64,000 bases of DNA from a virus (taxonomy: Duplodnaviria > Caudoviricetes): positions 1 through 64,000 of the IMG/VR virus record IMGVR_UViG_3300012038_000181. One strand, 5' to 3'. The translations under genes and the position numbers were made by a program. Below are positions 7,024 through 39,382 of this stretch, piece by piece. Each line of letters begins with the position of its first letter. The stretch's first letter is position 1. The notes beneath the pieces were generated by a model that worked only from the letters and a program-made list of their open reading frames with translations, was not told the origin of the DNA and searched no databases.

Positions 7024-7545
7024 ATGTCACCACCAATTAACAGCGCATACGCAACCCAACAGTTTAAGACTGATTCATACACAATCACCGTATCAGACGA
7101 TATTGTGCGGTTCACGCTGGCTGCTCCCGCGACTGCTACGCTGCCCTTTTCTCGCAACTGTTCGATAGTTTCAGGGCAGAACCAAAAGATTATTGCTAAC
7201 GGTGATTCAGGTGGTAATGACCTGACAATCGCGGTGGGTGCGGGCGACACGCTCATTGGAGAAACAACCTTGAGCGCGGGCGAGACAGCCTTTATTACTG
7301 GCGATGGAGTCTTGGTCTGGAATTCCATTGGCGCATCGGGCGTCACGGGAAATTCAGGTTACTCAGGCTACTCAGCATACTCAGGATATTCAGGTAAGAG
7401 TGGATTTAGTGGCATCTCTGGATTCTCTGGCTTCAGCGGCATCAGTGGCGCGAGCGGCAAGAGTGGATTCAGCGGTTACACCGGAATCTCTGGATTCAGC
7501 GGTTACTCAGGCACTACTGGTTACTCAGGTTATTCCAAAGCCTAG
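7024..7545 (+). CDS. Virion fibre/decoration protein with Gly-X-Ser repeat tail
   Basis: RBS AGGAG; KTDSYTIT..ATLP beta domain followed by ~23 G-X-S triplets. Confidence 0.7.
   Translation: MSPPINSAYATQQFKTDSYTITVSDDIVRFTLAAPATATLPFSRNCSIVSGQNQKIIANGDSGGNDLTIAVGAGDTLIGETTLSAGETAFITGDGVLVWNSIGASGVTGNSGYSGYSAYSGYSGKSGFSGISGFSGFSGISGASGKSGFSGYTGISGFSGYSGTTGYSGYSKA
7330..7539 (+). repeat. (Gly-X-Ser)n coding repeat, X mostly Y/F/I
   Basis: GYS/GFS/GIS triplets with varied codons. Confidence 0.85.
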
Positions 7546-8031
7546 AGGAGAGATTAAAACAATTTGACTTCGCTTCAAATCACGCCTTACTTGTTCACAT
7601 GCGCGACACGTTCGCCCCTCGCGTCCGTTTGTGTTGATGAAACGGATATTTTCAGGGGTAAACTCGTGACCTCTAAGACAGTGGGTTTTTCGAGCGTTCC
7701 GCGCCGTAGGGCCATTACCTCGCAGGACATTGGTGTGATTCGAAGCGGGCTCAAGGTGTGCCGGATTGACGCAATTGCGTATGCGACACAGGTGATCAAT
7801 CGTTTCGTCCGGTATTTCTCCAACGAAAAACAAATAAGCCAATCGGTGAGCACGTTGTGGAGCACCTTTATAGAGCAATCGAGCGTAACCTTTGAGCTTA
7901 CATCGGGAACCAGTCCAAAGCCAACACTGGCTTGTTCCGTACCACATGTCAGGATGCAAATAGACTTTTGCGAAAAAGCGGGTGAGTATCGCGGTATTTA
8001 CGGGAAGTCTGTTAGAATTATCTGGAATCAT
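7525..8031 (-). CDS. Free-standing HNH homing endonuclease (HNH_3 type with KTHCxRGH Zn module)
   Basis: CWLWTG..RAHRLAY..IDHLCRIRNCVNPAHL..KTHCLRGHEFTPEN; RBS GGAG; antisense in the late operon. Confidence 0.9.
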   Translation of the reverse strand: MIPDNSNRLPVNTAILTRFFAKVYLHPDMWYGTSQCWLWTGSRCKLKGYARLLYKGAPQRAHRLAYLFFVGEIPDETIDHLCRIRNCVNPAHLEPASNHTNVLRGNGPTARNARKTHCLRGHEFTPENIRFINTNGREGRTCRACEQVRRDLKRSQIVLISPLGFGIT

Positions 8032-8096
8032 CTGAGTCTCCGATACAGATTCAGTGGTCTAGGGTTTCGTGGTCTAGTTCACCGCGAAGCCCTTTC

Positions 8097-8107
8097 ATTT
8101 TAGCACA
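8097..8107 (-). promoter_or_regulatory. Extended -10 promoter (TGTGcTAAAAT) for HNH 7525-8031
   Basis: Reverse complement of ATTTTAGCACA; near-identical element precedes HNH 9050-9688. Confidence 0.6.
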
Positions 8108-8119
8108 AAGAGGAACACT

Positions 8120-8635
8120 ATGCCTCCAATTAATTCGATATACGCCAAGTATGTCACCAAGACAGACAATTACACGCTCACCTTCTCCGACGATGTGGCG
8201 ACTTTTACCATTGCGACCGCAAAGACCGCCACGTTGCCAAAAGCGGGAACGTGTACGGTGATGTCGGGTCAAAACCAGAAGCAGATTATTAACTCTGCGA
8301 ACTCCAGCGACACGCTCACGATAGCAGTACAGAGCGGGGATACGTTGGTTGGTATCGGCTCGCTGGCGGTAGGTCAGGAAACCATTGTTACGTCCAACGG
8401 CACATCTACTTGGACAGGCTTTGGCGGCGGTGGTGCAGCGGGCACATCGGGCTATTCAGGGCCAAGTGGATTCAGCGGCTACAGTGGGCCTTCCGGCTTC
8501 AGTGGCTACACGGGTGTTAGCGGATTCTCCGGTTACACGGGAGTCAGCGGATTCTCTGGCTACAGTGGAGCGAGCGGCTTCAGTGGCTACTCTGGATACT
8601 CTGGCAAGTCTGGATTCTCTGGATTCAGTGCGTAG
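8120..8635 (+). CDS. Paralog of 7024-7545 with Gly-X-Ser repeat tail
   Basis: MPPINSIYA..KTDNYTLT..ATLP..SGQNQK matches 7024 protein; ~21 G-X-S triplets. Confidence 0.75.
   Translation: MPPINSIYAKYVTKTDNYTLTFSDDVATFTIATAKTATLPKAGTCTVMSGQNQKQIINSANSSDTLTIAVQSGDTLVGIGSLAVGQETIVTSNGTSTWTGFGGGGAAGTSGYSGPSGFSGYSGPSGFSGYTGVSGFSGYTGVSGFSGYSGASGFSGYSGYSGKSGFSGFSA
8444..8630 (+). repeat. (Gly-X-Ser)n coding repeat
   Basis: GYS GPS GFS GYT GVS periodicity. Confidence 0.85.
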
Positions 8636-8698
8636 AGCGGTGAACGCGGGGTGGTTTCACACACTGCCACCCCGCACTAATACTCGGAGGTCACTCCT

Positions 8699-9016
8699 AT
8701 GGCGACAAGCGCAGCTCCATTTGGGACAGCACTAGAGATAATTCGTTCCGTTACGGTCACCACTATTATTACTGATGGGGCGACTAACCTTGTGACCTCT
8801 CCGTCAGGCGGAGCGAAGACCGTCACGCTCCCATCTATTGCCAACATGATTGCCAGTCAAAACCTGCTGATTTTTATTAACAATGCGGCGGGGGGCGGCG
8901 GCAACATTACCGTCGCGGCGGCAGGGAGTGATGCCATCATCGGGCAAACAGCGGTAGCAGTTGGTACGGGAGTTACCTACCGTCACGATGGCCGCGCAAC
9001 CTGGTATTCCACATAA
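8699..9016 (+). CDS. Third, repeat-less paralog of the small beta-domain virion protein
   Basis: AKTVTLP..LIFINN..NITVAAAGSDAIIG..DGRATW aligns with 7024/8120 head domains; RBS GGAGG. Confidence 0.65.
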   Translation: MATSAAPFGTALEIIRSVTVTTIITDGATNLVTSPSGGAKTVTLPSIANMIASQNLLIFINNAAGGGGNITVAAAGSDAIIGQTAVAVGTGVTYRHDGRATWYST

Positions 9017-9049
9017 GGCGACGATATGACCTCGACATCGCAGAAGTTT

Positions 9050-9688
9050 TTACTCTACGTGTTTCCAAGTTTGGCGATGTACGATTTTGGCGATACCCGA
9101 AATTGAGAGATTAAATTGTTTAGCAAGTTTACCAAAACTCGATTGGCCCGTAGCGTAAGTGGTGCGAATTTCACGTACTTGCGCTTCGCTCAATCGTGCA
9201 TGATGGGAATCCTCGCCAACGATCATAGAAACAATTTTAAGACGGCCCGAAAGCACTTCTTCCAAAGGGTGTCGTTCCAATCTGCCGTACAGCACTTGAT
9301 AAGACAGTCCCAAGTGTTGTGCCCATTCCGCAATCGAACGAGTCTCACCGTTGAAAGTAATCGACGTAGGATGGCGTCGGTTGTCCACTTGCTCCTTACG
9401 AGTGGCCCATCGCACGTTATTAGGCTCGTAGTTTCCGTTCTTATCGGGGTAGCGATCTATTGTATGTTTAGGGGTGGGGCGAAGCCCAACATCCCTAATG
9501 AAGCACGCAAAAGAATCAATCCATTCTTGACAGACGGTGATACCGCGTCCGCCGTAGTAAGAATAGGCTTGATTGTTTGGATTCAAGCATCGTTGCTTCA
9601 TAGAATCCCAAGTGTGGTATTCAGGACTTCCCGAAAGCCCGTGAGATTCGTGGTGTTGACGAATTTGTGGAGTATAGTTACTCGGCAT
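9050..9688 (-). CDS. Free-standing HNH-like homing endonuclease with C-terminal HTH
   Basis: EYHTWDSMKQRC..YYGGRGITVC..TIDR..NGNYEPNNVRWAT; C-term LSEAQVREIR..LAKQFNLS..TWKH; RBS AAGGAG. Confidence 0.88.
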   Translation of the reverse strand: MPSNYTPQIRQHHESHGLSGSPEYHTWDSMKQRCLNPNNQAYSYYGGRGITVCQEWIDSFACFIRDVGLRPTPKHTIDRYPDKNGNYEPNNVRWATRKEQVDNRRHPTSITFNGETRSIAEWAQHLGLSYQVLYGRLERHPLEEVLSGRLKIVSMIVGEDSHHARLSEAQVREIRTTYATGQSSFGKLAKQFNLSISGIAKIVHRQTWKHVE

Positions 9689-9756
9689 GATCTAGTCTCC
9701 TTAATAGACAGATTGTGTTGGGCTATGTCGGGGGTCACATCCCGCATGGCCCTATC

Positions 9757-9767
9757 ATTTTACCACA
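9757..9767 (-). promoter_or_regulatory. Extended -10 promoter (TGTGgTAAAAT) for HNH 9050-9688
   Basis: Reverse complement of ATTTTACCACA. Confidence 0.6.
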
Positions 9768-9780
9768 AAGAGGCGACGAT

Positions 9781-10164
9781 ATGAGTGGATCGCAGAAGTT
9801 TTTCAGCGAGGTTTGTTCATTAACAGAGCGCACGCCGACAAGCGTAGCGTCGTTGATGATTGCCGCAGGCTATGGCAGAGAGAAAGATGCAAATAACGAC
9901 ATCACGACCCAACCGTCACTAGACGGGTTCATTGGTTCGCAGTGTTTCATCATCCCGCAGACTGCGGGCATCTATATAGGTCACGATCAGTATGTCTCGA
10001 ACACGGCGTTGAGTGGGCCACCAAGAATGTATAAAGGGGTTCCCGTAGCAAGTGGTGATAATTACAACGTGGTGAATCCTATGCGTGGGATAGTTGATGC
10101 AAACGCTATCTGGTTGTTCTCGACCACGACGCAGGAAATTGGCATCGTATTTGTGGCAACGTAA
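9781..10164 (+). CDS. Hypothetical virion structural protein
   Basis: RBS AGAGG then ATG at 9781; beta-rich 127 aa. Confidence 0.65.
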   Translation: MSGSQKFFSEVCSLTERTPTSVASLMIAAGYGREKDANNDITTQPSLDGFIGSQCFIIPQTAGIYIGHDQYVSNTALSGPPRMYKGVPVASGDNYNVVNPMRGIVDANAIWLFSTTTQEIGIVFVAT

Positions 10165-10256
10165 TTTTCAAGGGCGCACAACAACAGCCCTATATTTGGC
10201 GCGGATTGCGGTCTTCTTCCTTTTCACCGTAGGCCGCGCCTTTAGTTTTTTAGATT

Positions 10257-12917
10257 ATGGCAAAAACCATCATAGAGGCGATAAATAGCGCATCGACTTA
10301 CCAGTTTGAAGGCGATACCGCGGAGTTACGGCTGTATCCAACTCAGACCTTTCTTGCTTCTACGGGGCAGATGGTCGGGCAAGGTTCGCCGTGGAACACT
10401 GAGAGTTGGTATTTACCCGTCACTTGTGATGTGCAGCCTACGGGCGTGCTTTATGTCCCATCCTTTGAAATAGATTCCACTACCGATGGTCAGCCGCGCA
10501 CTTCCAAATACATAGCAGCTTTATTTGACGAAGGTGGAGCTTATATAGGGCCATTCCCGTTAATGAATCCGAACGGGTTTGCCATTCCGCCTCCTGAACT
10601 GATGCCTACCCCGACGTGGGGGCAGTTACAGATTTACAACCGACTTCCTACGCTTCTCTATCCACCACAGACCTATCCGACGCGAGATGAGATGTACGCG
10701 GCGATTGCTGCTGCGCTCGGAGAACAAGGGCCAAAGGCGTCAGAAACCGTAGTCGGGATTACGGCGTTAAGCGAAGACCCGACAGACCCGCAGTTTCCGA
10801 TTGCGGTCTCAGTGACCGATCCTATATGGGAAGAATTTGTTGATGGTGGCCCTAACGCTTCCATCACGGTTAAGGGGCTTACCAAACTAGATGTTGCGCC
10901 TGCTAGTGCGACCGATCCTATCGCAGTTGGTGTTAATTCTCCTCGTGTGGCCCAAAAAGCCATTGTAGCTACAGGAGTCGAGGTGACGGATACGGCAGCA
11001 CTTCAGGCGGCTATTACGAGTTTAGGTGCCGCAGGTGGAGTGATCCGCACCCTAAGTTCACTTGCTACTCCGCTAAAAATTGATGGGACGGGAATCACAT
11101 TTCCGGCTTTAACTAACACAATCACATTTGAGGTGTTTGGGTATTGGGATTTGTCTGGTTCAGATCACACGCTGACCTTTCCCAATGGGGTAAATTGGGT
11201 CGGGCTTGGTGGAGCGGCAAATCTTCAATTTCAACACGCAGGCCCGACGGCGGGGATTATTCCGCCAACTGGTAATGTGACAACTCTGAAATTAACTGGA
11301 GCCAATAATCAGTTAATTCAAAATCTGGCTATTGATAGTTGTTCAGGAATTGGAATTTACATGGATGGAGTGAGTGCGTTAGGAGCACTCAAGACGCTGG
11401 AAAACGTAGCGGTTGTAGCATCTACAGCGGTGACTTCACAGCCGATTCAGATAGATGCTGTCTTTTGGGTTTGGATGCGCGATTGTTCATTCCTTTCGAC
11501 CTCGACATCGCTGCATTCAATACGGATTACGACATCTAGTGCTGCTCATAGTGCTGCGGGGTTGATCTACATTGACGATACCATAATTGCAGGGAAAGGA
11601 ATCAAGGTTGACGCGCAGGTAAATGTAAGCAGACAAGGAAATATATTCCTAACAAACGTACACGCTGAGTCGTTAAGCGACAGTTTACTCACCTTGGACG
11701 GAACGAATGGGCCAATCGCTAACATTGCGCTCAACCAAGTAGGCGTATCGGACTCGGTAAGCCTGCCCTATATTTTCAACGTAGTTGCTGGCCCTATAAA
11801 GAACATTTTCGTTAGAGACTCGGATAATTTAGCTACTGAAGCTGGAAGTACGCTGTGGGTTAATAACACAGCCAGCATAAATAATTTAGTCATTGAGGGC
11901 GGCAGAGATTTTGAATATGTGACGGGATGGTCGCTAGGAACCGCGCAACGTAATTACGTCTTAACGAGGGACGGACAAGTAGACAGTTCGTGGTTGGGTC
12001 AAGGCGCGGCCATGAGTCCGAGTTTAATTCCGTATACAAGTTTGGCGGTAAATCAAGACGCGTCAGCATGGGGTGGGTTGACAGGAACCGCGACGGTGAC
12101 TACTGGAATAATTGCTCCAGACGGTACAGCGACCGCCGCCACTCTTTCTTCTGCGGGCGGGGAACGCGCCCGTCGAGTGTATGCTGTGAGTGGCAGGTCA
12201 GCGGCTGTTGGTGATTGGGTTATGGTGGGTGTTTGGATGCGATCCGAAGACGCAACAGTCCCGTCTTATACTGGAAGCGTTTTTGCTACAAATTCAGGTA
12301 GCGGGCCAGCGACATTTGATTCAACCCTCACAACTCTGGGGCTGTCAAACGATCCTTCGCAAAGATTAAGCGCATCATGGGTTCCTGTTGTAGTGGCTGG
12401 CAAGATAACCACGTCACCCTCTGCGACTTATGATTTCATCATGGATTTGAAGTGTGATTCCACTCACCCGACTTCCTATTGGATGCCTTTTATTATTCAC
12501 ATTCCAGCGGCAACTTTGACAGATGCTGAAGTAATAAGGTTCAAACGGTATCTAACGAACGTGGTATCGAGTGTTCCTACAGGATCGTTGGCGATGTACC
12601 CGCACCAAAGTTTCTACGCGGGGAGGGTTATTTCGCAAGTCATTACCACCTTCGCAGACGCCGATACAACCCCCTCAGTGGCTGCCGGAAATGAGTTCAC
12701 GGCAACGAATACGGCCCCCACGTCCATCACTACGTTTGACGACGGAGTGAACGGTCAAACCATTACTATTCTTTTTACCAATGGTAATTCAACGATTGTT
12801 AATGGAGCGTCAGTCAAATTGTTGGCGGCAGGTAACTTTGTGGGTAGTGCCGACGATACCTTAACGCTCACACGTAGAGGCGGAACCTGGTACGAAATCG
12901 GAAGAAGCGTGAACTAG
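10257..12917 (+). CDS. Tailspike/tail fibre with pectin-lyase-like beta-helix
   Basis: Fibre motifs KASETVVGIT / NASITVKGLTKL, DTAALQAAI beta-helix cap, parallel beta-helix-like repeats, C-terminal ..TWYEIGRS domain; no signal peptide. Confidence 0.75.
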   Translation: MAKTIIEAINSASTYQFEGDTAELRLYPTQTFLASTGQMVGQGSPWNTESWYLPVTCDVQPTGVLYVPSFEIDSTTDGQPRTSKYIAALFDEGGAYIGPFPLMNPNGFAIPPPELMPTPTWGQLQIYNRLPTLLYPPQTYPTRDEMYAAIAAALGEQGPKASETVVGITALSEDPTDPQFPIAVSVTDPIWEEFVDGGPNASITVKGLTKLDVAPASATDPIAVGVNSPRVAQKAIVATGVEVTDTAALQAAITSLGAAGGVIRTLSSLATPLKIDGTGITFPALTNTITFEVFGYWDLSGSDHTLTFPNGVNWVGLGGAANLQFQHAGPTAGIIPPTGNVTTLKLTGANNQLIQNLAIDSCSGIGIYMDGVSALGALKTLENVAVVASTAVTSQPIQIDAVFWVWMRDCSFLSTSTSLHSIRITTSSAAHSAAGLIYIDDTIIAGKGIKVDAQVNVSRQGNIFLTNVHAESLSDSLLTLDGTNGPIANIALNQVGVSDSVSLPYIFNVVAGPIKNIFVRDSDNLATEAGSTLWVNNTASINNLVIEGGRDFEYVTGWSLGTAQRNYVLTRDGQVDSSWLGQGAAMSPSLIPYTSLAVNQDASAWGGLTGTATVTTGIIAPDGTATAATLSSAGGERARRVYAVSGRSAAVGDWVMVGVWMRSEDATVPSYTGSVFATNSGSGPATFDSTLTTLGLSNDPSQRLSASWVPVVVAGKITTSPSATYDFIMDLKCDSTHPTSYWMPFIIHIPAATLTDAEVIRFKRYLTNVVSSVPTGSLAMYPHQSFYAGRVISQVITTFADADTTPSVAAGNEFTATNTAPTSITTFDDGVNGQTITILFTNGNSTIVNGASVKLLAAGNFVGSADDTLTLTRRGGTWYEIGRSVN

Positions 12918-23206: not shown

Positions 23207-23752
23207 TTGATTTCCTTCCTAATCGCCTCCATGATCTTCTCTGCCGCGTTTGACGCGCCCCTGTCGGCATCATCGTTCGTGTAATGCTCCCGAACTTCTG
23301 CCGCGACCTTAAACGACTCCGCTATCTCTGCTGCTCTTTGTAGTCCAGCGGAATGACCGATACCAAGCGCATTAGTGATGGCGGTTTCCGTGGCATCATT
23401 CTCAGCACGTAGACGGCGTATCTCTGCTATTAGAGTGTCCCGTTCGTTGACCGCTTTGACGATGAGTGCGGCGTTAGCTTCGTTCTCGTCGGAAGTGCAT
23501 TGCGGCCATCCTCCCTCAATCTGAGCGATGCTTTCACCTGTCGGCGTAACACTGACATCCTTTGGGTGATCCAACATCGCGCCCCCGTAATCATAGATGG
23601 CCCACGGACGTGGAGACGCCCCTTCAATAGCTTCTAGGTCTAGTTGAGTCTCTACTACTGAGGGAGCGGGAGTGTTGAAGCCGCATATTCGGCGTGGGCC
23701 TGACTCGAAACAATCGGCGGTATGCTTGGTGCGCTACTGAGTTATCTGACAT
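23203..23752 (-). CDS. Ead/Ea22-like accessory protein, 5' end apparently frameshifted
   Basis: Frame of 23203-23577 extends upstream through LEAIEGASPRPW but has no start; ATG at 23752 is one base out of frame. Confidence 0.45.
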
Positions 23753-23881
23753 CTAGTCGCAAAGTCCTTTCCCAATAGTGAGTCCGACTAATATCCCGCA
23801 TCCGGTCCAAATGAACCAAAGAAAAATGAACAGCGGAATTGCAATGGATTTGTTAGTTGATACAGGTTTGTTATCTGACAT
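23753..23881 (-). CDS. 42-aa single-pass membrane protein
   Basis: MSDNKPVSTNKSIAIPLFIFLWFIWTGCGILVGLTIGKGLCD; abuts the next ATG. Confidence 0.55.
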   Translation of the reverse strand: MSDNKPVSTNKSIAIPLFIFLWFIWTGCGILVGLTIGKGLCD

Positions 23882-25336: not shown

Positions 25337-25603
25337 CTACTTCCCTTCCTTTCCTGCTGCTGCGGTTTCAAACAATTTGATTAACCGTAAGGTGTCAATA
25401 TTCCCATCCCAACAATCAGCAAGTTGACGATCAGTAATCTCAATCGCTTCTTTCCACACCTTTGCTCGCTCTGCTGCTAGAGCGGTGGCAATCGCGGTGA
25501 TTAAGGTATCGTCGTCGCTTTCCCAATCGTCACGTTGCTTTACGACAATCCCTTTTGCGACTGCTCTATCTTCATCGTTAGGTACTGCATTGATGTCTGT
25601 CAT
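25337..25603 (-). CDS. Hypothetical protein
   Basis: RBS AAGGAG; coupled overlaps. Confidence 0.55.
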   Translation of the reverse strand: MTDINAVPNDEDRAVAKGIVVKQRDDWESDDDTLITAIATALAAERAKVWKEAIEITDRQLADCWDGNIDTLRLIKLFETAAAGKEGK

Positions 25604-25860
25604 TGAGACTCCTTCGTCTTTCGTTCCCACGTAGTCCAGCGCCCGCGAGACTGAGCGCATATTTGATTACGAGCATGATAACCATCTGATTCCATCCATC
25701 CGGCGAACACGTCCCACGGCTTATCGCCCTTCTGAATTGTGTCGCCTTCGTCAATAAGGGAGTACCCGTTTTCGGGGGTGATCGGATCGCCGTAACAGTC
25801 TCGACCGTAGCGCGGTTGGGCCATCAACTCGAACCGATCAAACTCATCTAGCGTTCTCAT
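25600..25860 (-). CDS. Hypothetical protein
   Basis: RBS GGAGAGG; coupled overlaps. Confidence 0.55.
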   Translation of the reverse strand: MRTLDEFDRFELMAQPRYGRDCYGDPITPENGYSLIDEGDTIQKGDKPWDVFAGWMESDGYHARNQICAQSRGRWTTWERKTKESQ

Positions 25861-26069
25861 TCCCTCTCCTTCGGCTCCCAATAGAGTTCCAGCCAATCGT
25901 AAAAGCGTGGCAGTGCGGAATCATCGTGGAACGGATCAAACGCGGTCCCTCGAATCTTCTCCGCTAAACTAGGCCGTTCCATTTCCAGCGTGTTAAATGC
26001 GGTCTGTCCTAGACGCCATTGTTTAGGGCACATCTCACTAACTAACTGCTTAAAGTGCTCAAGTGTCAT
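25857..26069 (-). CDS. Hypothetical phage protein
   Basis: WRLGQTAFN..GTAFDPFHDD; RBS GGAGAGG. Confidence 0.6.
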   Translation of the reverse strand: MTLEHFKQLVSEMCPKQWRLGQTAFNTLEMERPSLAEKIRGTAFDPFHDDSALPRFYDWLELYWEPKERE

Positions 26070-26099
26070 TCCCTCTCCTTCGGCCTGTAGAGTTCAGCC

Positions 26100-34069: not shown

Positions 34070-34312
34070 CTAGTACTCTGACGTAACTTTGCGTTCAAAC
34101 AGCGTCCCGTGACCCTCAGAGCAGGAATACAAACAAGTCGATAGATACCTCTCACAGTCCCGACAAATGCGCTCATAGCAGCCGCAATCTCTCGCCGGAA
34201 GGGTTGTTACCACACCGCTACAACAGATTACGCTCTTGCCACGTCTCAATCTTAAATTCGGTGTCTTTGGCTTCTTTGACGAGCCGTCGATAGAACGCTG
34301 CCCGCGTTTCAT
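34070..34312 (-). CDS. Cys-rich hypothetical protein (start uncertain)
   Basis: CC..DCGC..CRDC..C..C. Confidence 0.4.
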   Translation of the reverse strand: MKRGQRSIDGSSKKPKTPNLRLRRGKSVICCSGVVTTLPARDCGCYERICRDCERYLSTCLYSCSEGHGTLFERKVTSEY

Positions 34313-34730
34313 ATTTGATATGTCCTGACTTGGTTCCTATGTCTGTGCGAAACACGTAGATCGGAAGTTCGCGCTTCTTAGCCATCTTAATCATGTGCTT
34401 AGTGCCCGTTGAGCGTCCGTCCCAAATCGCTATTAGAGCCTCAGCATGAACAGCCATTAACTCGTTGCGTCTCAGACCTGCTCTAGCGTCGTACTTCTGC
34501 CCCCACTTATTTCTCTTTATGAGCGCGTTCGGGTGTGTTAAATTCGTCCAATCCGGCTCAAATTGCTCAACCGGAACTGAATTTCGTTCAGCCCACATCA
34601 TTGCAAAGGTATCAACGCCCTTAGCACAGCCTGAAATGACTTCTGTAACTTCAAATCCTGAATCTTCAATCGCCCATTCAATGACTTCAGGATCAGTTAC
34701 ATCTCTAGAGCCAGCGATAACAACCTTCAT
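34218..34730 (-). CDS. SLOG/YspA-like (DUF2493) protein
   Basis: KVVIAGSR..VISGCAKGVD..AGLRRNELM..IAIWDGRSTGTKHMI. Confidence 0.85.
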   Translation of the reverse strand: MKVVIAGSRDVTDPEVIEWAIEDSGFEVTEVISGCAKGVDTFAMMWAERNSVPVEQFEPDWTNLTHPNALIKRNKWGQKYDARAGLRRNELMAVHAEALIAIWDGRSTGTKHMIKMAKKRELPIYVFRTDIGTKSGHIKYETRAAFYRRLVKEAKDTEFKIETWQERNLL

Positions 34731-35048
34731 CTTCAGCAACCTCTTAAATCTTGATCTTTAAGATGCCCCCACTTACAAACAATACTACCATTGTGTTTTT
34801 AGTTGAACATTTCCTTTAACCTCTGAACCGAGTAAGAGTTACACGAATAATGTAAAACTTACATACCATCTACTATGTAAGAATTACACGGTTGTAGGTT
34901 TACTGAGGATTTCGATTGAAAATAATTTGCTCCGAACGGCTAAAAAGTGAAGATTTCGCTTGACAGCTTTTTGGGGAAACGCGGAGAGAAACGCAACTGT
35001 GTAATTTTTACATACCTCATGGTGTTTCACGACTTGGTTACAAAAGGA

Positions 35049-36736: not shown

Positions 36737-37018
36737 ATGTTCAAGATCAACCTGGAAAGATTCGATGCCCGCGAACTTGGCGCATTGCTCGCCTTGGCTA
36801 CCGTGTGCATTGTAGTCACAGTAACCGTGATAGGAATGCTTTTTAGACCACCCCATCCAGACGGGAGAGAAGCCTTGTATCACACCGTTAGCGGCTTGAC
36901 TGGCTTGGCCGCAGGGTTATTAGGTGGTGGTGCAGCCGGATTTGCTCTTGCCGCTAAGAAGGCTGAGAAAGAGAAAGAAACCAAAGATGAGCGACCTAAC
37001 GCTGACGCAGTTAGCTAA
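36737..37018 (+). CDS. Two-TM protein, holin/antiholin candidate
   Basis: Two hydrophobic helices, charged tail; directly before the endolysin. Confidence 0.5.
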   Translation: MFKINLERFDARELGALLALATVCIVVTVTVIGMLFRPPHPDGREALYHTVSGLTGLAAGLLGGGAAGFALAAKKAEKEKETKDERPNADAVS

Positions 37019-37517
37019 CATCGCAAGTAGCTGTCCAGTCCCTAAGCTGGAAATCTATTTGCCCTTCCTCAACGAAGCAATGGCTGAAGGCGAAATCAAC
37101 ACACCTCTCCGACAGTCAATGTTTCTCGCTCAACTACTGCATGAGTCCGGCGATTTCAAATGGATGGAAGAAATAGCATCAGGCGCAGCCTATGAAGGAC
37201 GCAAAGACTTAGGGAATACACACACCGGAGACGGTAAACGCTTCAAGGGCAGAGGCCCAATCCAATTAACAGGTAGAGCCAACTACAAGGCCGCAGGAGA
37301 CGCGCTAGGCGTGGACTTTATCAACAGTCCTGAGATAGCAGCGTTCCCTGAATACGGCTTTAGAACCGCAGTCTGGTTCTGGGGTACACGTAACTTGAAT
37401 GTCCCGTCTGACGCAGGAGACATCAAGACTGTAACCAAGAAGATCAACGGGGGCTTCAACGGTCTTGAGGATAGAAAAGCGCGATACGCAAAAGCAAAGA
37501 AGGTGCTCGGTGTATGA
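36987..37517 (+). CDS. Endolysin, glycoside hydrolase family 19
   Basis: MFLAQLLHESG..EE..GRKDLGN..GDGKRFKGRGPIQLTGRANY..TKKINGGFNGLEDR. Confidence 0.92.
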   Translation: MSDLTLTQLANIASSCPVPKLEIYLPFLNEAMAEGEINTPLRQSMFLAQLLHESGDFKWMEEIASGAAYEGRKDLGNTHTGDGKRFKGRGPIQLTGRANYKAAGDALGVDFINSPEIAAFPEYGFRTAVWFWGTRNLNVPSDAGDIKTVTKKINGGFNGLEDRKARYAKAKKVLGV

Positions 37518-37705
37518 CGTTGGAGATAGCCGACATCGCCGCGTTAACAGGCATGATGGTAGTAGTTACCGGAGCCTTGGCCGTAATCACGAGATATTAT
37601 GTGAAGGCAGAAATTCAACAAGCGGTAAATGAATTGCGCTTGGAGTTATCCAAGGAAAGAGCAAGTATTTTGGAGTCACGAGTAGGAGAGAATAACAAGG
37701 CTTAA
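37514..37705 (+). CDS. Small single-TM protein (holin-like)
   Basis: N-terminal TM plus coiled coil; ATGA overlap. Confidence 0.55.
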   Translation: MTLEIADIAALTGMMVVVTGALAVITRYYVKAEIQQAVNELRLELSKERASILESRVGENNKA

Positions 37706-37914
37706 AATCAACGGGAACGACACCAGATAAAGCGTTCTCACCCCTGAGAATTATCCGATGCCGCCCCCGATTAGGTTGCCAATGTATACAGTAAGCGAGT
37801 AGAACGTAACTGAGAAAAGGTTACAAAATCAAGTATTAAACGTACAAAGGGTAGTGGAATAGAACCTTTTTGAAACTGATTTGAACCCGACTATGGCATA
37901 TATTTGTCGCCATT

Positions 37915-38409
37915 ATGCGAGCCGAACACTTGAGCGATAACGTGAATGTACATCTCCATGCAACTAGAGCAGCAGAACGGGTTAAGACCAACGGACGGAT
38001 GCCACAAATGTTGGATACGTCACAACCTTTTGCCAATCACGGGGATAGTGTATGGAAACGCTTTAAGGAACGCTGGTTTAAATGGGAGTACAACCTTACC
38101 GTGGCAGGAAGAACGATAGAAAAAGGGTGGGTCGTCCCTCAACCTCTCGGTATTGCCCTCATTCTCGTAATGATCAGCGGTACTAGCGTGTTGTATTGGC
38201 GCATTATTGACAGCCAGGCATCGCAAGACAGAGAAGTCACTGAGAAGCTGCAAGCCCAACGCGATCTCCTCATAGAAGTCAAAACAACGCTAGCAATCAA
38301 GGCTGAGGCCGACAGAGAGAAGCAGCGCAAGAACGAAGAAGACGATCAGCTTCAAGATATGCAGATTCAGGACTTAAAGGACAAGCTCTTGGTACTCAAC
38401 TCGAAATGA
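37915..38409 (+). CDS. Membrane-anchored coiled-coil protein (start uncertain)
   Basis: LGIALILVMISGTSVLYW followed by heptads. Confidence 0.6.
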   Translation: MRAEHLSDNVNVHLHATRAAERVKTNGRMPQMLDTSQPFANHGDSVWKRFKERWFKWEYNLTVAGRTIEKGWVVPQPLGIALILVMISGTSVLYWRIIDSQASQDREVTEKLQAQRDLLIEVKTTLAIKAEADREKQRKNEEDDQLQDMQIQDLKDKLLVLNSK

Positions 38410-38432
38410 GGTTAGCTTAAATGGGTGGGCAG

Positions 38433-39113
38433 TCAAGATCGTTGCCGCAGTCGGCGCACATTCCATCCGGTCTTGTCGGTATCGACAGGAATAGTGAGCG
38501 TGTCTTCCGTACTCCATCCGTCAATCAGGCGGTTCCAGATATTAGTTTGACTGATTCCCAACTCGGTCGCCCACTGAGAAATCGTTTGAACTTTCCCTCG
38601 AAATCTCAAGCGGCGATTGGTTCGCTTATTGTTGGTCTGTTCTGGCATAGTGGCCCATACGCAGTTATCAGGAGAGTAGCCGAGTTCGTTGTTTTCGCGC
38701 TCAAGCGAGTGATTAGCGGAAGGACGTTTGCCCATATCACTCAGAAAGTTAGCAGCCGTTTTCCATCGGTCGCAGACCGTAATACCCCGCGCTCCGTAGT
38801 TGTGGTATTCGACATTCTTAGGGTTCCCGCAGCGATCCATCATGTGCGCCCAAGCGGCATACTCAGGAGTCTTGGTCATACCATGTTTGAACTGTCGCGC
38901 TATTTGCAGTTCTGTTTTATGACATCCGCAGGAAACGCTAGATTCATTCTTCAGCGTATTGCCGCGCACTATCTTCTCTTTCCCACACGCACAGCGACAC
39001 AGCCAACGCGGAACGGTGCTTCCGCCTTTGGCATACTTGTAAATGGCTTTATCGTGAAATTTAAGCACAGTCCAGCGTCCGAACGATTGGCCTGTAATGT
39101 CTTGTATCTGCAT
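38433..39113 (-). CDS. Free-standing HNH-like homing endonuclease (AP2/NUMOD-type N-terminus)
   Basis: DITGQSFGRWTVL..WLCRCACG..SCGC..EYAAWAHMMDRC..YGARGITVCDRW..SLERENNELGYSPDNCVWAT. Confidence 0.9.
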   Translation of the reverse strand: MQIQDITGQSFGRWTVLKFHDKAIYKYAKGGSTVPRWLCRCACGKEKIVRGNTLKNESSVSCGCHKTELQIARQFKHGMTKTPEYAAWAHMMDRCGNPKNVEYHNYGARGITVCDRWKTAANFLSDMGKRPSANHSLERENNELGYSPDNCVWATMPEQTNNKRTNRRLRFRGKVQTISQWATELGISQTNIWNRLIDGWSTEDTLTIPVDTDKTGWNVRRLRQRS

Positions 39114-39148
39114 GCATTAAGCATAGCATAACAAAGGAGAAATGGGAA

Positions 39149-39382
39149 GTGGGGGGCCAGTCTTGCAAATTGAAAATCATTCTCAACGGTGGCGTGGTTG
39201 AATCCGTCGCTCACAAACTCTGCTATGCAGTCGAAGAAACCCCTGCGGACGCTATCGACTATGATTACGGGATTAAGATCGTGGAACAGTTGAACAAGGC
39301 TGAGGATGCCATGTTCGCCGCCCAACGATTATTCCTTGAGTCGCAAGACTTCCACGGGCCGTGGCCTAAATCTCTTTCGTAG
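39149..39382 (+). CDS. Hypothetical protein with a regenerated start
   Basis: GTG after AAAGGAG; MGGQS start duplicated at 38421. Confidence 0.55.
   Translation: MGGQSCKLKIILNGGVVESVAHKLCYAVEETPADAIDYDYGIKIVEQLNKAEDAMFAAQRLFLESQDFHGPWPKSLS

Follow-up and report, generated by a model that had tools for sequence, protein, structure and literature searches.

Organization of the locus

The window analyzed here, a stretch of 64,000 nt, belongs to an uncultured freshwater-sediment phage in which a cassette points against a late operon. Two plus-strand genes, here called gene A and gene B, flank a minus-strand gene for a putative nuclease, HNH1, and the region is laid out as follows.

8699–9016, plus strand: gene A (105 aa), part of the tail-fibre module, from the ORF list
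9010–9051, plus strand: left copy of the duplication, a resident stub with the end of gene A, the old ribosome-binding site (RBS) TAAGG, an ATG at 9026 and the start of gene B
9026–9106, plus strand: stub ORF, read by translation from the old ATG through 26 codons to a TGA at 9104–9106
9050–9688, minus strand: HNH1 (212 aa), an ORF that matches PHROG 3377
9052–9803, no strand: inserted segment of 752 bp, absent from a sister phage by blastn of the two genomes (G000, the window phage, and G001)
9116–9784, plus strand: candidate relay ORF, 222 stop-free codons antisense to HNH1 and in exact codon register with it
9720–9752, minus strand: hairpin, predicted by folding, in the 5′ leader of the presumed HNH1 transcript
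9755–9773, no strand: candidate dual-use motif TCATTTTACCACAAAGAGG, from a motif search in the 64 kb
9763–9803, plus strand: right copy of the duplication, the rebuilt start
9781–10164, plus strand: gene B, intact at 127 aa and starting MSGSQKFFSEV, the interrupted and rebuilt target

A preliminary description of this sequence had noted a repeat at 9016–9051 and 9771–9803. The repeat is real and consists of two exact, collinear direct repeats, AGGCGACGATATGA (14 nt, at 9016–9029 and 9771–9784) and ATCGCAGAAGTTTTT (15 nt, at 9037–9051 and 9789–9803), with the minus-strand gene between the copies and with a spacer that reads CCTCGAC (7 nt) on the left and GTGG (4 nt) on the right. By chance, about 0.005 exact 14-mer pairs would be expected in 1.7 kb, and a further exact 15-mer in the matching register has a probability of about 2e-8; the repeat pair is not a product of chance. 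When aligned to the sister genome by blastn, the duplicated segment spans 9010–9051 and 9763–9803 (42 and 41 nt), and 43 nt of the sister sequence aligns twice.

In the left copy, the stop codon of gene A (TAA, 9014–9016) abuts the old RBS of gene B, and codons 2–8 and part of codon 9 of gene B follow the ATG, so that the copy reads MTSTSQKF. The right copy holds, in order, CCACA, AAGA in place of the TAA stop, GGCGACGAT, the ATG at 9781, AGT GGA, and TCG CAG AAG TTT TT. The HNH1 stop codon, TAA, is the complement of 9050–9052 and shares two bases with the end of the left repeat, as had been remarked. The left copy had been called a remnant. It is indeed a stub of eight codons, but it is not merely dead DNA: with its RBS and ATG preserved, it begins the short stub ORF, which runs antisense into the 3′ end of HNH1.

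Judging from its homologues, gene B is a conserved phage protein with no assigned function. Its amino acid identity to six relatives is 50–98%, with 98% to HNH-free alleles, and four homologues in the databases cover the same range (50–98%). It has no family assignment in Pfam, PHROG or NCBIfam, its atlas neighbours are viral hypothetical proteins, and no relative is present in a one-genome-per-species bacterial collection.

HNH-free alleles and the direction of change

Seven HNH-free alleles of the locus were recovered, one from the sister phage G001 (locus L001), which is about 85–90% identical to the window phage at the nucleotide level, and six from more distant metagenomic relatives (L003, L004, L005, L006, L007 and L040). 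Each has a single RBS-ATG-(S)TSQKFF junction, and gene A lies directly upstream of gene B in L001, L003, L004, L006 and L040. The junction of the sister phage reads TAAGGCAACGATATGACCTCGACATCGCAGAAGTTTTTCAGCG, which is the left copy of the window fused directly to the sequence that follows the right copy; the left copy and the single junction differ by one base (GGCGACG and GGCAACG, respectively). Since this junction matches the left copy, 9052–9803 is an insertion of 752 bp carrying the right copy (MSGSQKF), with ends that can slide within the 15-nt repeat. By sequence comparison, then, the left copy belongs to the resident gene, and the right copy, with its altered bases, would have come with the insertion or arisen at it.

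In the blastn alignment, positions 8123–9051 of the window correspond to 36990–37918 of the sister genome and 9763–10708 to 37876–38814, and the flanks of the insert are 84–94% identical. These observations agree with the preliminary description, which had the element entering about eight codons into the gene and restoring it with an altered RBS and first codons: the right copy, MSGSQKF, starts the intact 127-aa gene. That description had also predicted HNH-free alleles with a single RBS-ATG-..SQKFF junction, and none of the seven carries the duplication.

The opposite direction of change, in which the occupied, duplicated form is ancestral and the empty alleles derive from it by a deletion between the repeats, is very improbable. 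Recombination across the 15-nt repeat would recreate the exact junction of the sister phage, and both copies in the window have the G of GGCGACG at a position where the four close empty alleles all have A. However, the seven HNH-free alleles all have a single junction, relatives at 50–72% amino acid identity from different studies among them, and none contains a relic of the nuclease gene. A stub that cannot serve as the start of gene B is, moreover, in keeping with an insertion and not with an original state. Because the distant relatives (50–72% identity) are also empty, the empty form is taken as the ancestral state.

The occupied form is represented by loci L002/L038 and by three further sequencing runs in which identical contig pieces bridge both junctions of the insert; identical pieces of the cassette occur in runs from three other samples (2017–2025). 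No contig skipping the cassette was found in four DNA runs, in which contigs cannot show rare variants. A metagenome scan yielded one further empty allele (L040) and found G001 again. The rebuilt allele (ATATGAGTGGATCGCAGAAGTT) was not found in IMG/VR in a form lacking HNH1, its sole match being the HNH-bearing contig L038, and blastn in distant mode gave no match among GenBank phages. The window and L038 are separated by three substitutions inside HNH1, which change three residues in a linker modeled with low confidence; these tell nothing about selection on either strand.

Three of the empty alleles (L003, L004 and L040) differ by eight synonymous changes within 21 nt at the insertion point, the densest such patch in 711 nt. 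The a priori probability of this clustering is P = 4e-4, and a permutation over the whole alignment gives a borderline p of about 0.05–0.07. The patch may be a sign of an arms race at the site. The window phage has a synonymous patch of its own at about 8970–8990, towards the 3′ end of gene A.

Several classes of mobile element were considered and rejected. An intein does not fit an ORF lying on the strand opposite to the host gene. A transposon or insertion sequence with a target-site duplication does not fit the lack of a transposase or the imperfect repeat (42 and 41 nt, with two block changes), and an integrase-type integrative element does not fit 752 bp that contain one gene and no recombinase and restore a 5′ end. 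With permissive filters, cmscan found no group I or group II intron family at E <= 1.

A self-splicing intron carrying a backwards endonuclease gene, with the stub as exon 1 and splicing restoring MTSTSQKFFSE, was weighed separately. Introns with leftward HNH genes are known in phage structural genes, for example in the capsid gene of mycobacteriophage LittleE (PMC3706429), and joining 9051 to 9804 recreates the G001 protein exactly. Nevertheless, we regard an intron as extremely improbable. The cmscan result holds for 7300–10300 and for the whole window, the ORF takes up all but about 113 nt of the insert, and an intron would have no use for the complete RBS, ATG and first codons that the insert supplies. 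Moreover, a neighbouring cassette, HNH2, has no usable exon 1, its target ATG having been destroyed. The difference between the two phages is a precise presence or absence of the insert between conserved flanks and outside any intron or intein, as would be expected of a free-standing homing endonuclease gene.

Recurrence of the design at other start codons

The window phage harbors two more backwards HNH cassettes, at 7564–8122 (HNH2) and 38436–39148 (HNH3), each of which is located at a start codon and supplies a new RBS and start. In the HNH2 cassette, 4 nt at the ATG that starts the gene at 8120–8635 have given way to 559 nt, and the start of the protein changes from MAPPINS to MPPINS. The HNH3 cassette leaves a stub, ATGGGTGGGCAGTC, and supplies a rebuilt start, GTGGGGGGCCAGTC. 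The repeat has no fixed length, measuring 42 nt for HNH1 and about 14 nt and about 2 nt for the other two cassettes. The sister phage has one backwards HNH gene at a start codon, located on a TAATG overlap, where it brings TGCTATAAT together with a new RBS and ATG. The start-rebuilding design thus recurs in other cassettes. At least five endonuclease genes distinguish the two sister phages, each occupying a site in one phage from which it is missing in the other, and all four of the reversed inserts that differ between them are endonuclease-type, belonging to two unrelated families.

Signals at the end of the cassette

The 19-nt motif at 9755–9773 could serve both strands. On the minus strand it contains an extended −10 element, TGGTAAAAT (9757–9765), which is a candidate promoter for HNH1, and on the plus strand it contains the new Shine-Dalgarno sequence AAAGAGG (9767–9773). 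With up to three mismatches, the motif has two matches in the 64 kb, where 0.05 are expected; the other lies at 8095–8113 in the HNH2 cassette, and the ends of the HNH1 and HNH2 cassettes align over it. From these features we infer a promoter role, with the qualification that the motif has no −35 element and was not called by a promoter scan. Elsewhere in IMG/VR, apart from L038, the motif is found beside a hairpin in two contigs of another virus (L041 and L042), with no endonuclease-sized ORF (70 aa or more) near it.

The leader hairpin at 9720–9752 has a folding energy of −23.9 kcal/mol (z −3.45), and none of 200 shuffled sequences folds as well. Read on the plus strand together with TATCATTTTA, it looks like a weak terminator, and the equivalent hairpin of HNH2 is likewise terminator-like on the plus strand. 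On its minus strand the cassette would then carry the 212-aa nuclease gene preceded by an extended −10 promoter, a hairpin leader and an RBS, and the plus strand at the promoter end would supply a stronger RBS, an ATG and seven recoded first codons of gene B, from which gene B could be made intact. Among public runs, no RNA run containing the phage is listed.

The duplication itself most likely originated in illegitimate break repair at microhomology, a route of new-site invasion that has been documented for free-standing endonuclease genes (PMC2988022). The arrangement could also protect the carrier from its own nuclease, because the left copy has lost the right half of the site and the right copy has a 7-to-4-nt block change 16–22 nt upstream of the junction. 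At the right junction of the carrier, however, the 15 nt to the left and all of the sequence to the right are rebuilt unchanged, and self-immunity is consequently not obvious. Destruction of the cleavage site in the carrier is plausible; the cleavage sites of free-standing endonucleases of T4 are often located away from the insertion (PMC2988022).

An open antisense frame

In all three cassettes of the window phage the longest ORF is the antisense frame and not the nuclease gene, and a naive choice of the longest ORF as the gene would take the former over the latter. The codons TTA, CTA and TCA, which read as stops on the opposite strand, make up 1 of 591 codons in the three cassettes, compared with 3.7% of 13,099 reference codons (P = 5e-9), and HNH1 has one such codon against an expectation of 7.6. 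In the cassettes, GC3 and the use of other A-ending codons are normal. The remaining two frames contain 9–14 stops each across the cassettes, and the two on the plus strand opposite HNH1 contain 14 each. Controls are not depleted: the endonuclease genes of the sister phage have 6, 3 and 9 TTA, CTA or TCA codons (6.6, 7.0 and 9.8 expected), and 19 homologues, 16 of which have both neighbours in the same orientation, have 1–12. The three cassettes avoid antisense stops. The open frame is not universal among reversed genes, for the reversed HNH gene of the sister phage lacks one.

This avoidance leaves the operon strand with a frame that is open between the displaced start and its replacement. 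The candidate relay ORF, with a TTG at 9116, is in frame with the old ATG, with one stop between them, and its TGA (9782–9784) overlaps the rebuilt ATG (as ATGA). We infer from this register a relay of ribosomes that acts against polarity. Ribosomes leaving gene A would start at the old ATG, restart after the one stop, translate across the insert and stop at the ATGA where the relay frame meets the rebuilt start. Such read-through would keep the operon translated and gene B coupled, avoiding Rho-type polarity or the effect of the terminator-like hairpin.

More generally, the backwards cassettes of this phage could be built to be “translation-transparent,” that is, in register with the displaced start, purged of antisense stops, and ending at a rebuilt RBS and start. 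We hold this reading tentatively, as a serious possibility somewhat short of the probable. If it is true, a selfish gene could be hidden without polarity in a tightly packed, coupled late operon, in a way not described before, and elements of this kind could be searched for by the depletion of antisense stops at the codon level. Should a ribosome relay underlie the depletion, this would amount to a general, testable requirement for reverse-oriented inserts in operons, and to a simple statistic by which to find them.

The HNH1 protein

The HNH label given to this gene in the preliminary description stands in part. HNH1 matches PHROG 3377, “HNH endonuclease,” at E 1.7e-50, and PHROGs with that label are matched at E 1.7e-50 to 5e-11, the labels being annotations only; the matches to HNH-labeled PHROG families that bear on the mobility class lie at E 1e-50 to 1e-27. 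The part that does not stand is the catalytic histidine implied by the name. Arg79 stands where the general-base histidine would be expected and is invariant in two alignments, of 40 and 39 family members, and the family alignment contains no invariant or near-invariant histidine. HNH1 has no HNH match in Pfam even at E = 10 (only a chance Mor hit), no match in NCBIfam, and no match to PDB sequences by phmmer, including at the sequence level to the restriction enzyme PacI. An hhalign comparison of HNH1 with HNH2, the HNH_3 protein next door, also gave no match.

HNH1 has 3508 homologues. The donor genome of the cassette was not found, the nearest full-length homologues being 50–55% identical (closest, 55%). 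Homologues in IMG/VR are at most 60% identical over the best segment, occur in unrelated contexts and, for the most part, point the same way as the genes beside them.

AlphaFold models of HNH1 (pLDDT 90.9 and 93.2) predict a PacI-like, His-Me-finger-like domain (residues ~13–107), a helical module and a C-terminal helix-turn-helix; the latter two, as DNA-binding modules, account for half of the protein. The order of a nuclease-like domain followed by DNA-binding modules is that of I-TevI or I-HmuI. A beta-beta-alpha unit at residues 76–103 (strands 76–79 and 92–95, helix 97–103) is modeled at pLDDT above 95. Searches with the whole model in Foldseek were swamped by the C-terminal helix-turn-helix (residues 156–212 have helix-turn-helix structural matches), and a domain-only model was needed; with it, the top matches, all weak, were I-HmuI, PacI and Gme HNH. 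The best PDB match of the domain is PacI, at Z 6.1–6.2 over 79 residues, well above the next rows and below the safe level of Z 8. HNH1 and PacI (PDB 3m7k/3ldy; Z 6.2, rmsd 3.6 Å, 79 residues, 19% identity) both lack a general-base histidine. PacI is an active enzyme of His-Me finger group 20 that uses an omega-loop tyrosine instead (PMC5714182), and the invariant Tyr87 of HNH1 is located in the equivalent loop. PacI is, however, a restriction enzyme that acts as a dimer, has zinc sites and targets an 8-bp palindrome (PMC5714182), whereas HNH1 has two extra DNA-binding modules and is monomeric-homing-like in its modeled architecture.

The missing histidine speaks for a passive origin, in which a moron-type gene entered by ordinary illegitimate or short-homology recombination at the RBS and start sequences of a gene boundary. 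Its product would then bind DNA but have lost the ability to cut, or never have had it, and the duplication would be a by-product of that recombination and not of homing. The invariant Arg79, the absence of a Pfam HNH match, and the devotion of half of HNH1 to two DNA-binding modules would all suit such a gene, and elsewhere in the window short repeats at the RBS or start bound two small non-nuclease genes (at 23741/23870, 12 nt, and at 25857/26066, 19 nt). We consider this origin improbable. All four reversed inserts differing between the sister phages are endonuclease-type, from two unrelated families, and HNH-free alleles carry a synonymous recoding patch exactly at the site. PacI, furthermore, is active without the histidine by means of a loop tyrosine (PMC5714182), and the HNH1 family keeps Tyr87 in the same loop.

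The segment at 9052–9803 is very probably a free-standing cassette of the homing-endonuclease type that entered gene B slightly more than eight codons past its start, and this is our best explanation of the locus as a whole. On this explanation, HNH1 would be a putative nuclease with a cleavage site at or near the insertion. The family, with over 3500 members found, is a very large group of “HNH” proteins that lack the histidine and match no Pfam model, and the literature searched contains no characterization of it.

Comparison with known systems

Endonuclease ORFs of fungal mitochondria, such as that in Allomyces atp6, supply their target gene with a new terminus, the displaced one persisting as a remnant, and integrative elements, which use integrases, restore the 3′ end of their target. 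As in the window, the mobile element carries a copy of the displaced part of the target. In both of these systems, however, it is a 3′ end that is restored, whereas the present cassette restores a 5′ end, with its RBS and start, in the absence of a recombinase. The preliminary description had called 5′ regeneration unusual, which is fair: no rebuilding of a 5′ end is described in the literature searched, though close precedents exist.

The free-standing seg and mob genes of T4-like phages resemble the cassette in being small nuclease genes with their own signals between conserved phage genes, present or absent among relatives, and spread or presumed to spread by double-strand-break repair (PMC2988022). 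The T4 genes are intergenic and, except for segD, co-oriented (PMC2988022), whereas the present cassette lies within the first codons of its target, backwards, with a start stub and a replacement start. The GIY-YIG gene segD, between late genes 23 and 24, is similarly a reverse-oriented endonuclease gene in a late structural operon, with no promoter identified; the review is silent on any rebuilt start or open antisense frame (PMC2988022). MobE in nrdA of Aeromonas phage Aeh1 and MobA at T4 39/60 are inserted within an ORF and supply new translation signals, by which the host gene remains functional (PMC3045599, PMC2988022). There the gene is split and two polypeptides reassemble, while at the present locus eight codons are cut off, a recoded copy is supplied, and one full-length protein is encoded, the severed piece being discarded.

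These “split gene” and “3′-end replacement” solutions are here extended to the 5′ end, and an endonuclease gene could colonize a phage whose genome has hardly any intergenic DNA, by inserting within the first codons of a gene and supplying that gene with a second start. The free-standing HNH genes of Cluster J mycobacteriophages are likewise precise insertions recognized by comparative genomics, and one of them gives lysin A a new end, which was put down to faulty repair or to a donor that had come from a different context (PMC3706429). In that case it is the 3′ end that is remodeled, with a loss of 35 bp, whereas the window has a remodeled 5′ end, a 42-nt duplication and a retained stub. The allele series in the present data (putatively sensitive, occupied and recoded empty) provides substrates for mapping the target.

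Insertion and rebuilt start at gene B

The G000 record is 72.5 kb long (CheckV completeness 97%), the window is its first 64 kb, and its source is freshwater sediment. The HNH1 insert is surrounded by a tail-fibre or late block on the plus strand.

Genes of the late/tail-fibre block and the HNH1 insert
7024-7545 and 8120-8635, plus strand, two collagen-like fibre paralogues
8699-9016, plus strand, gene A (105 aa)
9050-9688, minus strand, HNH1 ORF (212 aa), between gene A and gene B
9781-10164, plus strand, gene B (127 aa)
plus strand, fibre-like gene (886 aa)

A repeat search identified two exact direct repeats, arranged collinearly, one of 14 nt (9016-9029 and 9771-9784) and one of 15 nt (9037-9051 and 9789-9803). 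By chance, this region should hold roughly 0.005 exact 14-mer pairs, and for a second exact 15-mer in register the figure is about 2e-8. The left copy retains an RBS and ATG (9026) and encodes MTSTSQKF, while the right copy is the start of intact gene B (MSGSQKFFSEV); two bases of the HNH1 stop (complement of 9050-9052) are also the final two of the left repeat. Repeat search and ORF reading thus bear out every detail of the duplication, reading frames and HNH1 stop position in the preliminary description, which had proposed that the element entered gene B about eight codons in and brought an altered RBS and first codons. From left to right copy, two blocks differ. TAA becomes AAGA, by which the gene A stop is lost and a better Shine-Dalgarno sequence is made, and the spacer between the two repeats changes from CCTCGAC to GTGG, 3 nt shorter and 16-22 nt upstream of the junction.

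In the sister phage G001 (IMG/VR 3300027743_000002; 74.7 kb, with terminal repeats), which is 84-94% identical to the window in the gene A/B block, gene B directly follows gene A at the junction TAAGGCAACGATATGACCTCGACATCGCAGAAGTTTTTCAGCG (MTSTSQKFFSE). In a whole-genome blastn comparison, positions 8123-9051 and 9763-10708 of G000 each align to G001, where the two alignments share 43 nt. The window thus has 752 bp of additional DNA (9052-9803), and the shared 43 nt are duplicated in it (42 nt at 9010-9051, 41 nt at 9763-9803). The G001 junction carries the CCTCGAC block; the left copy is therefore resident, and the right copy is part of the insert. The single RBS-ATG-SQKF junction predicted for HNH-free alleles was found in G001 and in all six others, which come from other samples and share 98% (L003, L004, L040), 72% (L005, L006) or 50% (L007) amino acid identity, and none of the seven carries the duplication. 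Because distant relatives are empty as well, the empty state is ancestral, and an origin of the HNH-free alleles by deletion is unlikely given seven of them, out to 50% amino acid identity. The occupied allele was recovered in an independent IMG/VR contig (L002/L038, 99.6% identical), and identical contig pieces span both insert junctions in three more sequencing runs dated 2017-2025. The insertion with a rebuilt 5′ start at gene B is real and well-supported.

Two other classes of element were considered and rejected. An intron is contradicted by the lack of an Rfam match, by the fact that only approximately 113 nt fall outside the ORF and by the complete start that the insert holds, and a transposon by the lack of a transposase and by repeats that are imperfect and variable in length. 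In the way it works, the insert resembles T4's free-standing seg and mob genes (PMC2988022). As with MobE in Aeh1 nrdA and MobA in T4 gene 39/60, an insert within an ORF supplies new translation signals (PMC3045599), and like segD, the sole reversed T4 endonuclease gene, it is reversed. An HNH insertion in Cluster J mycobacteriophages gave lysin A a new 3′ end (PMC3706429), whereas here the 5′ end is rebuilt. The literature searched contained no description of a 5′ end being rebuilt while a start stub stays behind.

The HNH1 protein

HNH1 hits PHROG families that carry the label HNH endonuclease (phrog_3377, E 1.7e-50), and no match was found in Pfam, NCBIfam or PDB sequences. In the family alignments Arg79 is invariant where HNH_3 proteins carry the general-base histidine, Tyr87 is invariant in a loop between two strands, and no histidine is invariant or nearly so. 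Confident AlphaFold models (pLDDT 90.9 and 93.2) contain a beta-beta-alpha unit at residues 76-103, a small helical module and a C-terminal helix-turn-helix. Among solved structures, PacI matches the first domain best (Z 6.1-6.2, 78-79 residues, rmsd 3.6-4.0 Å), clearly above the lower-ranked matches yet under Z 8; the top Foldseek matches, all weak, are I-HmuI, the I-TevI DNA-binding domain, PacI and Gme HNH. PacI is a known His-Me finger without the histidine, using a loop tyrosine instead (PMC5714182). On the basis of the invariant Arg/Tyr pattern, the model and the PacI match, we call HNH1 a putative PacI-like, His-less relative of the His-Me fingers with the modular build of a homing enzyme, and nuclease activity is predicted as likely. 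The family has more than 3500 members, called 'HNH endonuclease' in phage databases, and neither a Pfam model nor a catalytic histidine; its chemistry appears to be uncharacterised.

Recurrence of reversed cassettes and endonuclease turnover

Recurrence of the reversed, start-rebuilding design carries most of the weight behind our interpretation. The HNH2 gene lies on the minus strand (7525-8031), encodes a true Pfam HNH_3 protein and is flanked by the two collagen-like fibre paralogues, which are adjacent in G001 (..AGGAGAGATTAAAACAATGGCTCCACCAATT..); in the window, 559 nt stand in place of 4 nt at the downstream paralogue's ATG. The old RBS is kept on the left, and the right end supplies AAAGAGGAACACTATG and a recoded start (MAPPINS to MPPINS). 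Lacking its own stop codon, the HNH2 ORF continues for 13 codons within the upstream gene (cassette 7525-8122). HNH3 (38433-39113, minus strand) is 42% identical to HNH1. Its cassette has a stub ATGGGTGGGCAGTC (MGGQS) and a rebuilt start GTGGGGGGCCAGTC (MGGQSCKLK..; gene 39149-39382) with a GTG start codon, and the HNH3 stop again falls on the junction. The G001 homologue (MGGLACKTK.., 47% amino acid identity) directly follows its upstream neighbour with no insert. HNH3 is an HNH1 paralogue with an N-terminal Cys-rich region (cassette region 38421-39163).

At least five endonuclease genes distinguish the two sister phages; three of them are present in G001 and absent from the window at the corresponding sites. 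A reversed HNH_3-like gene (25459-26001) stands where G000 has a TAATG stop/start overlap, and it supplies TGCTATAAT with a new RBS and ATG. A co-oriented GIY-YIG gene (34164-34973) fits into a stop/start overlap without duplication and takes over its neighbour's last two codons, stop and overlapping start. The third (9531-10226) is a co-oriented HNH1-family gene.

At 23741-23881 and 25857-26084 in the window (minus strand), exact direct RBS/start repeats of 12 nt and 19 nt flank two very small genes. These are not nuclease genes; the repeats suggest that start-region duplication also goes with the gain of non-nuclease genes in this phage, and they favor passive recombination at gene-boundary sequences with a protein that does not cut, an explanation we nevertheless consider improbable.

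A shared, putative regulatory end

The HNH1 and HNH2 proteins are unrelated; their cassettes have similar RBS and start regions and share a 19-nt motif, TCATTTTA[C/G]CACAAAGAGG, with two matches in 64 kb versus 0.05 expected. On the minus strand the motif is a predicted extended -10 (TG[G/C]TAAAAT) with a stable hairpin leader downstream (z -3.45 and -2.82), and on the plus strand it provides the new Shine-Dalgarno sequence. The 19-nt motif, as TCATTTTAGCACAAAGAGG, also follows a hairpin in two contigs of another virus (L041 3955-3973, L042 1180-1198), with no endonuclease-sized ORF (≥70 aa) nearby and few ORFs under the standard code.

Origin of the duplication and the target site

Two readings of the duplication remain. 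It could have been made in situ during illegitimate break repair: both copies have G in GGCGACG where the four close empty alleles all have A, their flanking bases are identical (29/29), and the right-hand joint could draw on microhomology between the cassette motif CACAAAGAGG and the target CACATAAGG. It could also be the imported 5′ end of a donor allele, as the right copy begins ATGAGT like the 127-aa L003-type alleles.

The two block changes leave the occupied genome without an intact copy of a stretch of about 35 bp across the junction. This would fit self-immunity of the carrier, which we treat as a hypothesis because the rebuilt sequence is unchanged over the 15 nt left of the junction and throughout on its right. 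The HNH-free alleles L003, L004 and L040 differ from G001 by 8 synonymous changes in 21 nt at the insertion site, the densest patch in a 711-nt alignment (a-priori P = 4e-4, permutation P ~0.05). Judged from sequence, these are candidate resistant alleles, and the G001 allele is sensitive-looking. Relative to G001 and the window, codons 2-9 of gene B are synonymously recoded in all three (ACC TCC CAA AAA TTC TTC TCT; L003 383-410, L004 448-475, L040 677-704). The final codons of gene A (~8970-8990) carry a series of synonymous changes in the occupied allele only (GGA GTT ACC TAC CGT CAC versus GGC GTA ACC TAC AGA CAT); this series could be a co-conversion tract or a real or alternative cleavage or immunity site. 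Together, the two patches hint at conflict here.

An open antisense frame

In each of the three window cassettes, an open frame runs along the plus strand in codon register with the nuclease gene.

Open plus-strand frames
7564-8103, plus strand, HNH2 cassette, 179 codons
9116-9784, plus strand, HNH1 cassette, 222 codons
38421-39131, plus strand, HNH3 cassette, 236 codons

At HNH1 it is in frame with the old ATG at 9026, with one stop, after 26 codons, and its final TGA overlaps the rebuilt ATG (ATGA). The HNH3 frame begins at the old ATG itself, and that of HNH2 at a TTG two bases past the old ATG position. The codons TTA, CTA and TCA make up 1 of the 591 codons of HNH1-3, versus 3.7% of 13,099 reference codons (binomial P = 5e-9); 7.6 (HNH1), 5.2 and 6.3 are expected from the Leu/Ser content of the three genes. 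Other A-ending codons (21% versus 19.5%) and GC3 are normal, and the other two plus frames of the cassettes hold 9-14 stops each. Controls are not depleted: the reversed G001 HNH gene, with no open antisense frame, has 6 such codons (6.6 expected), the co-oriented HNH gene 3 (7.0) and the GIY-YIG gene 9 (9.8). All 19 IMG/VR homologues examined carry 1-12 of them, and in 16 of these both neighbours have the same orientation. Depletion in the three cassettes, with undepleted controls, indicates that selection maintains the open frame, at any rate in this phage. Neither the papers covered by searches on reverse orientation or antisense nor the T4 review describe such depletion of antisense stops.

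The three antisense products are unrelated junk sequences, and the selected feature is most plausibly translation itself, given the established coupling of transcription and translation. Ribosomes would run on from gene A across the insert to the rebuilt start, and this relay may protect 0.6-0.75 kb that would otherwise go untranslated from Rho-type polarity, and may melt the hairpin and T-run just upstream of the new RBS, which on the plus strand resemble a weak terminator. In each of the three cassettes the antisense frame exceeds the true nuclease gene in length, and gene choice by longest ORF annotates the wrong strand in all of them.
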